This document shows, in pieces, positions 1 through 34,823 of a stretch of DNA of 34,823 bases. The stretch is taken from UHGV virus genome UHGV-0362719; one strand, given 5' to 3'. Numbering within the stretch: position 1 is the stretch's first letter; every line of letters begins with the position of its first letter. The translations under genes were made by a program, and so were the position numbers. Source of the stretch: a virus. The notes under the pieces were generated by a model. That model worked only from the letters and a program-made list of their open reading frames with translations, had not been told where the DNA came from and made no database searches.

Positions 1-497
1 TCCTCACGCAACAGCATAATTGCTTCGCGCAAGGGTAGATTGTCAGTACTTTTGCCATTAAGAATCAGTAAGCTGGCGGGAAATTCTGCCATGATCGTAT
101 GTGCCTTTATGATTGGTCTGTAGATAGTGTAGAGCAGAAAACAAAAGGTGGAGTCAGAACAGGATGAAAGTCGGAGGATAAAAAGTCAGTTCAAGTATGG
201 AGGATTCAGTGGTTACCACCAGGAGCTTGCAATGGGGACAGCGAATACTAACGGCTGCCACCGATAAATTTCAAAAAAGAGCATATACCTAATATTCAAC
301 TAAACAGTGGCATCTTCAATATAATATATTAAAGCCCCCATGGAGTTACCCTGAAGGGCCTCAATGTCCGTAATTCCTACTTATGTAGGAAATGTTGTAC
401 AGAACATTTATTATAATCCTATTCAATTATAATAATCATGCCATTATTATATTTAAACACTAGAGAGTGTCGTTGGTATTTAATGGGGGAAGGTGAG

Positions 498-815
498 ATG
501 AAAAAGATAGCTGCTATATCATTAATTAGTACTTTTATTATGTCTGGTTGTGCTGTGCATAATGATGAGACAAGTATCGGTAAATTTGGTCTTGCATATA
601 AAAGTAATATTCAGCGTAAACTCGATAACCAATACTACACCGAAGCCGAAGCTTCTTTAGCCAGGGGTAGAATATCTGGTGCAGAAAATATAGTAAAAAA
701 TGATGCAACTCATTTCTGTGTTACTCAGGGCAAAAAAATGCAAATAGTTGAGCTGAAGACAGAAGGTGTAGGATTACATGGTGTCGCTCGTCTGACATTC
801 AAATGTGGAGAGTGA
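498..815 (+). CDS. Host-side putative lipoprotein (signal peptide plus lipobox MSGC)
   Basis: Track ORF 438-815; I prefer the internal start MKKIAAISLISTFIMSGC at about 498, preceded by a GGAGGTGAG-like RBS. Hydrophobic signal and L-S-G-C lipobox seen in the translation. Lies outside the prophage. Confidence 0.5.
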   Translation: MKKIAAISLISTFIMSGCAVHNDETSIGKFGLAYKSNIQRKLDNQYYTEAEASLARGRISGAENIVKNDATHFCVTQGKKMQIVELKTEGVGLHGVARLTFKCGE

Positions 816-974
816 GAATATTTTTTGGTAAGCGTCAAATATGCGCGTTCTGGCTGTGCGTAGCCGGAACCTGTGGGAGCACGATGCCGATAAGTGAAAG
901 GCATCGTGCTATGAAGGAGGATTCTATCGATGTGGTCAATGGAAGACGGTTACCAGAGATAGGGCTTATGCATA

Positions 975-1001
975 AAAAAATAAGCCCGTGTAAGGGAGAT
1001 T
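975..1001. repeat. attL: attL core: 27-bp direct repeat AAAAAATAAGCCCGTGTAAGGGAGATT
   Basis: Exact 27-bp copy of the sequence at 34670-34696; matches my recollection of the P2 att core; lies about 80 bp from the 3' end of the integrase gene. Confidence 0.85.
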
Positions 1002-1080
1002 TAGGGTGTCACCAGTAGGGGCTTTCAACGGTACAATGCGGGTTTGAGCGGCATAAATTACCACTGAAAGCCCTTAAACG

Positions 1081-2094
1081 TTACTCTACTGTGGACACTG
1101 TGTGGACACTCTCGGCCTCAGTACCACCTCTTAGCGGATTAAGAGAAATGGCGTCCTGAAGGTACTCTGGCGCAAAATGAGCGTAAACCATAGTTTGCTC
1201 AATCCGCGTGTGACCTAGTATCCGTTGTAGCGTGATAATACTTCCTCCATTAATCATGAAATGAGTGGCAAAGCTGTGCCTTAGTGCATGTGTGGCTTGC
1301 CCCATTGGCAAATCCGGTTTTATTGCTTTCATTGTTCGTCTGAAGCGAGGGTAATCAGCATCAGGGAATAAAAAACCTCGTTTGTTATCCGCGATCATTT
1401 TGGCAACAGCCTCTGAGATCGGGACGGTGCGTGGTTTGTTTGTTTTCGTTTTAACAAACGTGACGCGGTTATGGATGATATTTTCTGCTTTCAAACGAGC
1501 TGCTTCTCCCCAACGCGCTCCTGTACTCAGGCAAAGAATCGCAATCTTTTTGTTGTCGCCGTCAAGAGCAGCAAGCAGTAAGGCAATTTCTTCCTGCGTG
1601 AGATAGCCTGTGTCTGGTTTTTCCTCCTTAAGCCTTTTTGTCCCTCTGATAGGGTGCTCACCAAAGAATAACTCCGCTTCAATCAGGGCTGTAAACATGC
1701 CGCTAATACATGTTAAATCACGATTGATACTCGAAGGTTTAATACCCTGACTTCTTCGGGTGGCGCAGTACTGGCTGATAAGCGATTTCGTAATTTGAAA
1801 TGCGCATGGGTCATTCGTTATTTTTGTGAAGATTTCAATTTTTCCAAGATTAGATTTCCCATGCTCTTCGTGTTTACCCTTTAAATCCCACCAGATCTGT
1901 GTCAGCTCCGACAGACGTCGCTTGTCTGTTGGTTTTGATAGCCATTCTTTATTGTGGTGGTTGTACAACGTGTATTTCTCGAAAGCGACAGCTTCGCTTT
2001 TCTTATCAAACTTCCTACGGATGCGTTTTCCATTACGTCCAGTAGGGCGGATGTCCACTTCATATCGACCATCATCGAGTTTTTTGATTGCCAT
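1081..2094 (-). CDS. int: Tyrosine site-specific integrase, P2 Int-like
   Basis: 337 aa (same as P2 Int); C-terminal region contains HxLRHxxA...Y-type catalytic motifs (ATHALRHSFATHF...GHTRIEQTMVYAH); adjacent to attL. Confidence 0.95.
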   Translation of the reverse strand: MAIKKLDDGRYEVDIRPTGRNGKRIRRKFDKKSEAVAFEKYTLYNHHNKEWLSKPTDKRRLSELTQIWWDLKGKHEEHGKSNLGKIEIFTKITNDPCAFQITKSLISQYCATRRSQGIKPSSINRDLTCISGMFTALIEAELFFGEHPIRGTKRLKEEKPDTGYLTQEEIALLLAALDGDNKKIAILCLSTGARWGEAARLKAENIIHNRVTFVKTKTNKPRTVPISEAVAKMIADNKRGFLFPDADYPRFRRTMKAIKPDLPMGQATHALRHSFATHFMINGGSIITLQRILGHTRIEQTMVYAHFAPEYLQDAISLNPLRGGTEAESVHTVSTVE

Positions 2095-7946: not shown

Positions 7947-8450
7947 GCATAGTTCCCTTTCATCAATTAAAGACCCTTATGCCGACTGGGCAAAGAGGCT
8001 AACTGTAATGGCCTCAAATAACGACCTGAGCTCACGCGAGGTGGACAGTTACACTGAAAAAATGGTTGAACAAGCCAGTAAAGATGAGCTTATGGTCGTT
8101 ATAAAATACCTGTTAAATCACATCAGAATGAGTAAATAAAATGATCTATATCAAGATGTTATCTCACATTTATGAAAGTCCGTGGACAACGATTTTTCTG
8201 CTAATTGTTGTCAGTACGTGCCTCAACAGTGTGATTGGTGCATTGCGCGGCCAGTGACAACTATAAAAATTGATCAGAACCGGCACCATGAATGCCGGTT
8301 TTTTTGTGCTTTTTCTGTGATATCCCCGTTTTTATCTGTGCATGGTTTTGCATGTGCCGGAGTTACATGTTCTGGCTGTGCGTCCGCCAGGACTGGCGTG
8401 GCTCAAAAGCGGTATTGCAACTGCATTAAAACCGCCCCATGAAGCGGGCG

Positions 8451-22958: not shown

Positions 22959-25277
22959 ATGAGCACAAAATTCAAAACCGTTATCACCACTGCCGGTGCA
23001 GCAAAGCTGGCAGCGGCAACCGCGCCGGGAGGGCGGAAGGTCAACATTACCACGATGGCCGTCGGGGATGGCGGTGGTAAATTGCCTGTCCCGGATGCCG
23101 GACAGACCGGGCTTATCCACGAAGTCTGGCGACATGCGCTGAACAAAATCAGCCAGGACAAACGAAACAGTAATTATATTATCGCAGAGCTGGTTATTCC
23201 GCCGGAGGTGGGCGGTTTCTGGATGCGTGAGCTTGGCCTGTACGATGATGCGGGAACGTTAATTGCTGTGGCGAACATGGCCGAAAGTTATAAGCCAGCT
23301 CTTGCCGAAGGCTCAGGGCGTTCGCAGACCTGCCGCATGGTCATCATCGTCAGCAGTGTGGCCTCAGTGGCGCTGACCATTGACACCACAACGGTGATGG
23401 CGACGCAGGATTACGTTGATGACAAAATTGCAGAACATGAACAGTCACGACGTCACCCGGACGCCTCGCTGACCGCAAAAGGTTTTACTCAGTTAAGCAG
23501 TGCGACTAACAGCACGTCTGAAACACTGGCTGCAACGCCAAAGGCGGTAAAGGCCGCATATGACCTTGCTAACGGGAAATATACCGCACAGGACGCCACC
23601 ACAGCACGAAAAGGCCTTGTCCAGCTCAGTAGTGCCACCAACAGCACGTCTGAAACGCTCGCCGCAACACCAAAAGCGGTAAAAGCAGCATATGACCTTG
23701 CTAACGGGAAATATACCGCACAGGACGCCACCACAGCGCGAAAAGGCCTTGTTCAGCTCAGTAGCGCCACCAACAGCGATTCTGAAACGCTGGCCGCAAC
23801 GCCAAAGGCGGTAAAGGTCGCGTATGACCTTGCTAACGGGAAATACACTGCACAGGATGCCACCACCGCGCGAAAAGGTCTTGTCCAGCTCAGTAGCGCC
23901 ACCAACAGTGATTCTGAAACACTGGCCGCAACACCAAAAGCGGTGAAGTCTGCCTATGACAATGCTGAAAAACGTCTTCAGAAAGATCAGAATGGTGCGG
24001 ATATTCCGGGAAAGGATACCTTCACGAAAAATATCGGTGCCTGTCGTGCTTATAGCGGCGCTTTGAGCACTGAAGCCGGAAACTGGACAACCGCTCAGTT
24101 TATTGAATGGCTGGATTCCCGTGGTGCATTTAATCATCCGTACTGGATGTGCAAAGGCTCCTGGTCATATGCAAATAACAAAATCATTACGGATACCGGA
24201 TGTGGTGATATCCACCTGGCTGGTTGTGTCGTCGAGGTCATGGGAACAAAATCTGCAATCACTATTCGAGTGACCACGCCGACAACATCAAGCGGTGGCG
24301 GTACAACCAGCGCGCAATTCACTTACATTAATCATGGGGACGGCTACTCCCCCGGCTGGCGTCGTGACTGGAATCGTCAGGGCGACGCAATGACCGGAAC
24401 GATTAATCAGGATGGCGGAAGCCAGAATGCCTATATGTCTACGGCCTTATGTTCAGGCACCAGAGGCGGCAAAAAATATCTCAGAAAGTTTCGTGGTGGA
24501 GAAGGAGACACTATCTGGCATGAAACAGTGCAGGGCGGGGTAATTCGCTGGGCGACAGGAAACTATGACGCTCAGGAAGAATTATCACTCAGCTCCGCTT
24601 ATGGTCTCCGTTCTAGAGGTGAAATTACATCACTCAGTGCTAATGGTCTGCGCATTGCTTATGGCAATTATGGATTCTTTATCAGGAATGATGGTGGCAG
24701 CACATATTTAATGCTGACGGCCTCTGGTGATAAATTTGGGACATGGAACGGTTTAAGGCCGCTGACTATCAATAACGCTAATGGCGGAGTGTCAATGGGG
24801 CATGGCCTGAGTGTTACTGGTGATATTGCCTCAAGTACCAAAGTACGTGCCGGTAGCGGGAAAAAGTTCACGGTCAGCAGCAGCAATACATCCACGAAGG
24901 AAGCCGCATTCAATTTGTGGGGAAACTCAAGTCGTCCTGTGGTGGCTGAATTAGGTGATGATGCAGGCTGGCATTTTTACAGTCAGAGAAATACAGATAA
25001 CAGCATCACTTTTGCTGTTAACGGGCAGGTATCACCATCTAACTATAGTAATTTTGATTCACGCTATGTCCGGGATATCCGGCTTGGTGGTGCTGCCACA
25101 TACAAACCTGCGAACAATGGCATGACATGGACACATCAGGCACCGTCCGGGTGTGTATATTCCGGCATTATTGTTCAGGATACCGGCTCAAACTCTGCCG
25201 ATAACATTGGTGGCGTATATTACAGACCGGTTCAGAAATACATTAACGGGACATGGTACAACGTGGCGCAGGTATAA
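22959..25277 (+). CDS. H: Tail fibre protein H (extended, repeat-containing, mosaic C-terminus)
   Basis: 772 aa; N-terminal about 170 aa is the conserved P2 H baseplate-attachment region (MSTKFKTVITTAGAAKLAAATAPGG...); central 44-aa tandem repeats; Gly/Ser-rich C-terminal half. P2 H is about 669 aa by recollection. Confidence 0.9.
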   Translation: MSTKFKTVITTAGAAKLAAATAPGGRKVNITTMAVGDGGGKLPVPDAGQTGLIHEVWRHALNKISQDKRNSNYIIAELVIPPEVGGFWMRELGLYDDAGTLIAVANMAESYKPALAEGSGRSQTCRMVIIVSSVASVALTIDTTTVMATQDYVDDKIAEHEQSRRHPDASLTAKGFTQLSSATNSTSETLAATPKAVKAAYDLANGKYTAQDATTARKGLVQLSSATNSTSETLAATPKAVKAAYDLANGKYTAQDATTARKGLVQLSSATNSDSETLAATPKAVKVAYDLANGKYTAQDATTARKGLVQLSSATNSDSETLAATPKAVKSAYDNAEKRLQKDQNGADIPGKDTFTKNIGACRAYSGALSTEAGNWTTAQFIEWLDSRGAFNHPYWMCKGSWSYANNKIITDTGCGDIHLAGCVVEVMGTKSAITIRVTTPTTSSGGGTTSAQFTYINHGDGYSPGWRRDWNRQGDAMTGTINQDGGSQNAYMSTALCSGTRGGKKYLRKFRGGEGDTIWHETVQGGVIRWATGNYDAQEELSLSSAYGLRSRGEITSLSANGLRIAYGNYGFFIRNDGGSTYLMLTASGDKFGTWNGLRPLTINNANGGVSMGHGLSVTGDIASSTKVRAGSGKKFTVSSSNTSTKEAAFNLWGNSSRPVVAELGDDAGWHFYSQRNTDNSITFAVNGQVSPSNYSNFDSRYVRDIRLGGAATYKPANNGMTWTHQAPSGCVYSGIIVQDTGSNSADNIGGVYYRPVQKYINGTWYNVAQV
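23478..23960 (+). repeat. Tandem 132-bp (44-aa) repeats, about 3.6 copies, inside tail fibre gene H
   Basis: Seen in the translation: KG(F/L)(T/V)QLSSATNS(T/D)SETLAATPKAVKAAYDLANGKYTAQDATTAR repeated 3 times plus a partial 4th. Minus-strand track ORFs 23489-23734 and 23493-24137 show the same periodicity. Confidence 0.85.
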
Positions 25278-34349: not shown

Positions 34350-34568
34350 ATGTTTCATTGTCCTTTATGCCAGCATGCCGCACATGCGCGTACAAGTCGC
34401 TATATCACTGACACGACAAAAGAGCGTTATCACCAGTGCCAGAACGTGAATTGCAGCGCCACGTTCATCACTTATGAGTCGGTACAGCGATACATCGTGA
34501 AGCCGGGAGAAGTCCACGCCGTAAGGCCGCACCCGTTGCCGTCAGGGCAGCAAATTATGTGGATGTAA
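34350..34568 (+). CDS. ogr: Late-gene transcription activator Ogr (zinc finger)
   Basis: Track ORF 34287-34568; internal start MFHCPLCQH gives 72 aa (same as P2 Ogr); CxxC ... CxxxxC zinc-binding motif (CPLC ... CQNVNC). Confidence 0.85.
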   Translation: MFHCPLCQHAAHARTSRYITDTTKERYHQCQNVNCSATFITYESVQRYIVKPGEVHAVRPHPLPSGQQIMWM

Positions 34569-34580
34569 TTACAAACAGGA

Positions 34581-34606
34581 AGCCCCTCAGTCGAGGGGCT
34601 TTTTTG
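34581..34606 (+). terminator. Rho-independent terminator after ogr
   Basis: Seen: AGCCCCTC-AGTC-GAGGGGCT hairpin followed by TTTTTT. Confidence 0.7.
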
Positions 34607-34669
34607 TCGATGTGGTCAATGTGTGGACGTGACCAGAAATAAATCCTTTTATTTCAGTGTATTACGCGT

Positions 34670-34696
34670 AAAAAATAAGCCCGTGTAAGGGAGATT
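34670..34696. repeat. attR: attR core: 27-bp direct repeat AAAAAATAAGCCCGTGTAAGGGAGATT
   Basis: Exact copy of 975-1001, located about 100 bp downstream of ogr and its terminator. Confidence 0.85.
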
Positions 34697-34823
34697 ACAC
34701 AGGCTAAGGAGGTGGTTCCTGGTACAGCTAGCATTTTATGGGTTATGTTTTTCAGCGAAACGGATGATAACCTTAATAAATGCAGCTGTATGTGATCGGT
34801 TTCTAAGAATTTTCCATCCGGGA

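Follow-up and report, generated by a model that had tools for sequence, protein, structure and literature searches.

The DNA analysed here (the window) is a stretch of 34,823 nt, UHGV virus genome UHGV-0362719, in which the host flank to the left of attL carries a 15-nt copy of a sequence from the right arm of the resident P2-like prophage. This host copy is very probably the best-preserved part of a decayed P2-type P arm, left by an ancient element that has been reduced to an islet of ~0.8 kb and whose decayed attR now serves as attB locI. The islet, which contains the orphan gene yegR and lies at the terminator of the small RNA gene cyaR, is most likely a relic of that ancient P2-type element.

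The resident prophage and its attachment site

The resident prophage is a Peduovirus, ~97-98% identical to P2-like phages across the shared regions. Its ends and the adjoining host gene are composed as follows.

975-1001, plus strand: core of the resident attL, duplicating the cyaR terminator (exact 27-bp repeat)
1002-1110, plus strand: P' arm of the resident P2-like prophage with the Cox region (near-identical to the annotated P2 region)
1090-1097 and 1101-1108: predicted Int arm repeats TGTGGACA in the P' arm (near-identity to the annotated P2 region)
1081-2094, minus strand: int of the resident prophage (ORF of 337 aa; P2 annotation)
34350-34568, plus strand: ogr of the resident prophage (sequence 98% identical to P2 ogr)
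34580-34605, plus strand: terminator of ogr and the F operon (transferred P2 annotation)
34607-34634, plus strand: P-arm binding site of Int, TCGATGTGGTCAATGTGTGGACGTGACC, comprising two arm repeats (same sequence as P2 24293-24320, which is annotated protein_bind Int, P arm)
34638-34671, plus strand: P-arm IHF site (transferred from P2 24324-24357)
34670-34696, plus strand: attR core, the functional cyaR terminator (exact repeat, within the Rfam CyaR match)
34673-34758, minus strand: cyaR (RyeE) small RNA gene (Rfam RF00112)

Both copies of the core read AAAAAATAAGCCCGTGTAAGGGAGATT. The first-pass annotation had recognized this exact repeat, although it placed the core one base too far to the left, owing to an extra host A at 974. 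CyaR matches Rfam RF00112 over its full length at 100.7 bits (gathering score 47), and its terminator coincides with the core. Since the core falls inside the CyaR match at 34673-34758, the P2 core is the CyaR terminator, and integration regenerates cyaR at attR. The RefSeq record of P2 gives the Int P-arm footprint, then the IHF site, and then the core. The consensus of the P2-type Int arm repeat is tgTGGaCa (PMC3448106). Within the prophage's late region (23477-23966), three overlapping direct copies of a 226-nt unit are arranged with a period of 132 nt and are 84-87% identical.

A phage-arm repeat on the host side of attL

Exact copies of the 15-mer TCGATGTGGTCAATG are present at 927-941 and 34607-34621, as had been reported in the first-pass annotation, and nowhere else in the window; both are on the plus strand, and each lies to the left of a copy of the 27-bp core (975-1001 and 34670-34696, respectively). 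The distance from the 15-mer to the core is 33 nt on the host side, or 32 nt when A974 is taken as part of the A-run, and 48 nt for the phage copy, in agreement with the earlier figures of 32 and 48 bp, and the phage copy is indeed situated between the ogr terminator (~34580-34605) and the core. Its 15 nt are those with which the annotated Int P-arm footprint begins in the RefSeq record of P2, and it contains the first of the two arm repeats, TGTGGTCA. The earlier wording of an arm-type Int-binding-like motif in the host site is thus also literally true, the host copy comprising one P2-type repeat and the start of the annotated Int footprint.

A pair of exact 15-mers is by itself not rare in DNA of this length: ~0.56 pairs are expected in 34.8 kb (N^2/2/4^15), and a second, unrelated pair is found at 847-861 and 8369-8383. 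The host copy might on this ground be taken for a chance likeness, or for convergence of a motif rich in A/T and GTGG, but the expectation drops to ~1e-5 once both copies are required to lie less than about 50 nt from a core, on the same side and on the same strand. The match extends without gaps over 40 nt with 75% identity, and a gapped local alignment of the host arm to the phage arm gives a score of 38, which was reached by none of 2000 shuffles. The colinear extension as far as the core, an intermediate lineage and independent traces at the islet's opposite end, all described below, also speak against coincidence, which is excluded by the statistics taken together and to which we assign practically no probability.

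The host arm and the spacer preceding it are delimited as follows.

816-921, plus strand: spacer within the islet, containing strong hairpins at 847-870 and 879-909 (RNA fold; no phage hits)
922-974, plus strand: decayed P arm, that is, the phage side of a relic attR and today's B arm of attB locI (colinear alignment to 34602-34669)

Host 922-974 and phage 34602-34669 have the same orientation and are colinear all the way from 15-mer to core, with a single gap of ~15 nt. The host arm retains the 15-mer at 927-941 with an intact first arm repeat at 931-938, while the second repeat is degenerate (GGAAGACG, 5/8 against TGTGGACG of the phage), so that one of the two repeats is kept. The gap falls at the A/T-rich IHF segment of the phage, ~15 nt being missing from the host sequence of the window. 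It is partly filled in a lineage that is ~93% identical here (E. coli XJ6.1, L136), which has 12 more nt, CAATCCGTCTCT against AAATCCTTTTATTTC of the phage. We read this sequence of XJ6.1 as a probable intermediate state of decay, and loss of the IHF segment is consistent with decay rather than with a working arm. A multiple alignment places the host arm with P2 and with seven P-type arms from other genera. When the 15-mer and the core are omitted, the similarity of the spacer is modest (P = 0.043 for the host of the window, 0.005 for E. coli AH20I049 (L004) and 0.011 for XJ6.1) and is equalled by 6 of 112 natural controls among the cyaR loci listed; it may be counted as supporting evidence only.

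The first-pass annotation had suggested a search for further ogr-proximal phage sequence in 803-974. The part at 922-974 is arm-like as described, but 803-921 contains no ogr-proximal coding sequence. The whole yegR-cyaR spacer (816-975) has an unusually stable predicted RNA fold (-61 kcal/mol, z = -5.35), and neither an Rfam family at gathering score, nor a canonical terminator, nor phage similarity was found in it.

The same flank at unoccupied sites of E. coli

A composite empty site, made by joining the left flank to the right flank at the core, was compared with complete E. coli genomes. It is found in one piece with up to 100% identity in many of them (e.g. NZ_CP019455), and 4568 of 5426 genomes have at least 80% of it at a single location. 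In strain FHI_NMBU_03 the empty site is exactly the flank of the window, 15-mer included, and none of the four E. coli lineages that were read, among them lineages that are 3-7% divergent, has a change in the 15-mer. Since the same flank is present at empty sites, the 15-mer is not a strain-specific scar.

These comparisons bear on a more recent origin, in which an earlier P2-like prophage would have been deleted in this particular strain, leaving a fragment behind, before a second phage integrated. Such remnants do occur at this very site, as K-12 demonstrates; K-12, however, carries the host copy in addition to its own remnant, and the flank is 100% identical at unoccupied sites of many strains, most of it co-located in 4568/5426 genomes, with the 15-mer intact even in the divergent lineages. 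A recent scar is refuted by the comparison with empty sites and is considered highly improbable. The proposal of the first-pass annotation, a scar of an earlier P2-like element, was thus right in kind and wrong in age and extent, the scar being specific neither to the strain nor to the lysogen. It had also taken a 15-mer in uninterrupted attB, with no other phage-like sequence nearby, as the mark of a host sequence that the phage arm merely resembles; the 15-mer is present in uninterrupted attB, but other phage-like sequence is present as well, at 922-974 and 180-276.

The yegR islet as an insertion at the cyaR terminator

The host flank to the left of the arm consists of old chromosomal sequence followed by the islet.

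1-92, minus strand: 5' end of yegS (lipid kinase), the ancestral neighbour of cyaR (translation match; RefSeq annotation of identical loci)
93-179: ancestral yegS-cyaR spacer, the true old B arm (alignment to E1V33)
277-487: AT-rich filler of the islet (GC 29-39%)
498-815, plus strand: yegR, an orphan lipoprotein gene (PF27694), cargo of the islet (RefSeq annotation)

In other Enterobacteriaceae the yegS-cyaR spacer directly abuts the cyaR terminator. The distance from yegS to the terminator is 90-160 nt in most of them and 102 nt in Escherichia sp. E1V33 (L064), against ~900 nt in E. coli. Positions 1-173 of the window are 86-89% identical to E1V33, which continues for 6 more nt before its terminator; the alignment breaks at 173/975 and resumes at 975 with 98% identity. 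E1V33 lacks yegR, while its YegS and YegQ are 93% and 99% identical, respectively. The stretch from 174 to 974 (~0.8 kb, AT-rich and containing yegR, with 29-39% GC in its centre) is accordingly an E. coli-specific insertion at the cyaR terminator. At least 120 species-level cyaR loci were anchored on conserved CyaR positions, and yegR is absent from all 117 non-E. coli loci among those listed, which include one yegR-less Escherichia genome (E1V33) and do not include E. albertii, E. fergusonii or E. marmotae. Conversely, the ancestral yegS-cyaR junction was found in none of 5426 E. coli genomes, in all of which the islet is fixed.

A direct repeat of the core is present at both ends of the islet, with 27/27 matches at the right and 18/27 at the left (19/27 in XJ6.1), and phage-arm sequence lies inside both copies, P' after the left core and P before the right core. 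With a decayed core and P'-like sequence at its left end and a decayed P arm at its right end, the islet therefore has the architecture of attL and attR. Comparison of 174-974 with the resident prophage, int included, by tblastx and blastn detected no similarity beyond the ends, and comparison of 803-921 and 237-921 with the same prophage by tblastx and short-word blastn gave chance-level hits only. A search of a phage collection with 803-974 and 174-497 returned two records that contain host flank, spurious Vibrio hits and nothing else. As the interior (237-921) is without detectable phage similarity, only the two ends identify the element as P2-like. An integrase gene is absent, presumably by deletion, the islet being too short to hold one.

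The filler at 277-487 presumably holds the promoter of yegR. A scan of positions 1-1100 found no canonical intrinsic terminator for yegR. In E. coli AH20I049 and similar strains, a 169-bp AT-rich insertion (1538-1706 of that locus) directly follows the stop codon of yegR, with the hairpins lying downstream of it.

A probable decayed attL at the islet's left boundary

180-206, plus strand: decayed copy of the 27-bp core, the relic attL core, AAAAAGTCAGTTCAAGTATGGAGGATT (18/27 matches)
207-276, plus strand: decayed P'-arm-like sequence, the phage side of the relic attL (matches resident 1002-1071)

The left core copy is situated exactly where E1V33 has its cyaR terminator. Its 18/27 matches correspond to a binomial P of 2.6e-5, and over both strands of the whole window a single other non-core position reaches 18 matches. 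The corresponding copy in XJ6.1, with its 19/27 matches, is in register within the multiple alignment. The sequence following this core resembles the beginning of the P' arm; resident 1002-1071, the counterpart of 207-276, is the start of the Cox-binding region of P2. The first 30 nt agree with the resident P' at 19/30 positions in register (empirical P = 3.5e-4), and a 70-nt global alignment to the P' arm has a score of 11, which compares with -2.9 +/- 3.4 for the null and was reached by none of 3000 shuffles. An unconstrained local alignment of the segment is not significant alone (462/2000 shuffles). The support for a P'-like segment depends on the register and on the global alignment. The P' Int repeats and an int gene were looked for in the islet, and neither was detected.

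A local tandem duplication of the 3' region of cyaR was considered as the source of the left core copy and rejected, because the adjoining 70 nt are P'-arm-like and not CyaR-body-like (the same 70 nt score 1 against the CyaR body). The architecture of this boundary is therefore B - core - P'.

Origin of yegR

Except for a few homologues at unrelated chromosomal loci, members of the yegR family occur only in E. coli and Shigella. Homologues of YegR with 69-83% identity are encoded at another locus, in the order glutaminase - yegR-like - orf110 - nitroreductase - ivy, on metagenome and SRA contigs (L137-L140). DNA homology to the closest paralogous locus is limited to 488-818, i.e. the yegR ORF with its ribosome-binding site, which indicates that the ORF moved as a minimal cassette. 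Among the contexts of the homologues, none is at cyaR and none in a P2-like element, and these contexts therefore do not identify the carrier. As homologues reside at unrelated loci, yegR may have entered independently of the element; either it was brought by the element or it was inserted later.

YegR matches PHROG 21109 (phrog_21109), which could be taken as a sign of a phage gene. This reading was rejected because the only phage records that encode YegR are a prophage cut-out together with yegS and gatR (ON470606.1) and a fragment of 2.4 kb. The partial genome of Escherichia phage vB_EcoM-720R8 (ON470606.1) extends beyond attL and includes, at 32.0-34.8 kb, yegR, yegS and gatR of the host. 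Records containing host flank probably explain why YegR has a PHROG of its own.

Direction of transfer and cyaR loci of other genera

A P2-type arm with 0-3 mismatches to the 15-mer is present beside cyaR at 7 of the at least 120 loci, including those of Citrobacter, Enterobacter, Buttiauxella and Salmonella diarizonae. In a locus labelled E. coli (L074) the 15-mer is exact and is part of the E. coli B arm. When the E. coli locus and the seven loci with P-type arms are set aside, the remaining 112 of the loci listed serve as unoccupied-site controls; their downstream sequences are unrelated and have 5-8 mismatches to the 15-mer. Recognisable P2 genes accompany the arm at one of the seven loci only, that of Citrobacter youngae (L112). 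On the phage side, the P2-like phages L-413C and fiAA91-ss, whose cores are different, have the same module of ogr terminator, arm repeats TCGATGTGG and IHF segment. The module is thus common to phages with other cores and missing from the 112 controls, from which it follows that it is phage-borne and that the E. coli copy is derived.

The opposite direction, with the host copy as the original and the P arm captured by imprecise excision from the region downstream of cyaR in E. coli, has a precedent in that phages integrating at the 3' ends of RNA genes carry a host-derived core, as is the case here, where the core is cyaR sequence. Capture from E. coli would nevertheless leave unexplained that P2-like phages using other cores share the arm module, that P-type arms at cyaR contain it in genera whose other listed species lack it there, and that it recurs in the P' arm as a functional Int motif according to the P2 annotation. 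Furthermore, the host copy lies inside a lineage-specific AT-rich insertion bounded by copies of the core. A transfer from host to phage is therefore regarded as very unlikely, and descent of the host copy from a phage arm is preferred.

Insertions between yegS and cyaR in other genera vary in content. In Salmonella enterica subsp. diarizonae (L122), an islet of ~2.9 kb encodes an arginine glycosyltransferase of the SseK/NleB family of type III effectors (NF011910, 743 bits) together with an ORF weakly similar to SicP-like chaperones; next to the cyaR terminator, the islet finishes with a P2-type arm in a decayed state (TTAATGTGGTCAAT...GGATTACACGC). The presence of this arm suggests that the effector gene was brought to this att site by a P2-type element. 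Islets of 2-3 kb or scrambled remnants with a P2-type arm at cyaR are also found in a Buttiauxella MAG (L087), in which the initial ~10 nt of a core copy persist at the boundary on the yegS side, in Citrobacter sp. Awk 4 (L039), and in C. youngae, where a scrambled remnant consists of fragments of Q, P and D plus ogr. Like the ogrK remnant of K-12, these islets and remnants represent more recent layers of the process that probably left the yegR islet. Insertions of 0.65-4.4 kb without a P2-type arm are present in Enterobacter (L019, L113 and L114), Kluyvera (L045 and L033) and Raoultella (L106 and L115). The 3' end of cyaR appears to be a general insertion hot spot.

A proposed history of the site

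On the preferred reading, a P2-type element would have been integrated by Int into the cyaR terminator in an ancestor of E. coli, giving attL (old B arm - core - P') beside yegS and attR (P - core - cyaR) on the other side. The interior of the element would then have been lost or replaced, leaving 174-974, now with yegR. The core of attL, free of selection, presumably decayed to 18/27, and that of attR, being the cyaR terminator, would have been preserved. The old P arm would have lost its second Int repeat and the IHF segment while keeping the first repeat. The intact core and the decayed P arm would together constitute the attB locI of P2 genetics, where the resident prophage was to integrate, so that the host side of its attL is flanked by old phage-arm sequence. 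We infer both that the ancient integration was mediated by Int and that what integrated was itself a P2-like phage and not a different kind of carrier of a P2-type att/int module.

Possible function of the retained repeat

A variant of this history accepts the relic origin and regards the first arm repeat as kept because it is a putative functional arm-type Int site. The N-terminal domain of P2 Int could bind there at attB or attL and thereby affect the preference shown for locI or the way in which the excisive complex is assembled. In this direction point the identity of the repeat to the P1 repeat of the phage and the invariance of a 26-nt block, TCTATCGATGTGGTCAATGGAAGACGGT, in four E. coli lineages in which neighbouring positions vary; invariance across only four lineages is, however, not significant, as roughly 2 changes would be expected. 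Against such a role, the arm has kept just one of its two repeats and lost the IHF segment, and the distance to the core is 33 instead of 48 nt. Nor would host DNA be expected to be under selection for a phage's benefit. In lambda and in P2, attB is not known to need more than the core for its function. It is accordingly unlikely, in our estimation, that the repeat was retained for such a function. We likewise see only a small chance that the repeat is not inert, which would mean that attB locI and every attL formed there possess a putative site for the Int N-terminal domain 33 bp from the core. If this were true, the repeat could help to make locI a strongly preferred site for P2, or could alter the excisive complex at attL, and the canonical P2 attB would be an evolved, half-dismantled attR and not a naive host sequence.

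Implications

If the relic origin holds, the preferred P2 site of E. coli, locI, is to be re-read as the cyaR terminator plus the decayed attR arm of an older P2-type element, instead of plain host DNA. For yegR, an E. coli-specific orphan, it offers an origin as cargo or infill of a relic islet at the att site of a small RNA gene. A single site would then contain successive layers of integration and decay, namely the old islet, the ogrK remnant of K-12 and present-day prophages. Some practical points concern the calling of prophage boundaries, since a boundary is not necessarily mis-called when phage-like sequence is seen beyond attL, and the phage databases, into whose records and PHROGs host genes, yegR among them, have found their way. 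Scars left by prophages at att sites are well known; the relic described here is a refinement and not a new principle, and is of interest to specialists in P2 att biology and in the origin of yegR.

Comparison with known systems

The original papers on P2 locI (said to be those of Yu et al. in 1989, Barreiro and Haggard-Ljungquist in 1992, and Yu and Haggard-Ljungquist in 1993) reportedly established the 27-nt core and the K-12 remnant, the cryptic P2 remnant at locI of E. coli K-12 being reportedly the subject of the 1992 paper in J Bacteriol 174:4086, which is cited in PMC3091744. We know of no mention of arm-like sequence in locI in these papers. Full-text literature searches, whose reach did not extend to the original locI papers, found no paper that links yegR, cyaR and a P2 relic.

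The K-12 remnant at locI (yegZ/D' - ogrK - attR) occupies the same site, the cyaR terminator. As in the islet, a P2-type element has been degraded from the attL side, and attR-proximal sequence has been left beside an intact core. The K-12 remnant differs in being young and strain-specific, ~98% identical to P2, with both Int repeats, the IHF site and ogr intact, whereas the yegR islet is old, has only ~50-100 nt recognisable at each end and is present in all 5426 genomes. The islet is located outside the K-12 remnant, which was inserted into the islet's core. Derivatives of K-12 thus have the order host 15-mer, truncated attL core, D'-ogrK, phage 15-mer, core and cyaR. In BW25113 (L002, 1690-1710), the attL core of the remnant breaks off after AAAAAAATAAGCCCGTGTA, and the 3' part of gene D follows without intervening sequence. 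This point is the exact deletion junction of the ogrK remnant, and K-12 carries both an old decayed and a young intact P arm.

P2 attP consists of the Int repeats of the P arm, the IHF site, the 27-bp core, the Cox boxes and the Int repeats of the P' arm. The islet resembles it in having arm repeat, spacer and core at the right end and a core followed by P'-proximal sequence at the left end, in the same orientation. It is unlike attP in being split as attL and attR and in being degenerate, with a second P repeat of 5/8, a deleted IHF segment and a left core of 18/27.

The 3' ends of small RNA and tRNA genes are recurrent hot spots of integration at which relics have accumulated, e.g. the sdsR locus of Salmonella (PMC3333887). 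Like hot spots of the sdsR type, the cyaR locus has the 3' end of a small RNA gene as an att site that is regenerated on integration and that repeatedly collects foreign DNA. Unlike those hot spots, the relic at cyaR supplies one arm of the site that is used by present phages, and it is fixed throughout the species.
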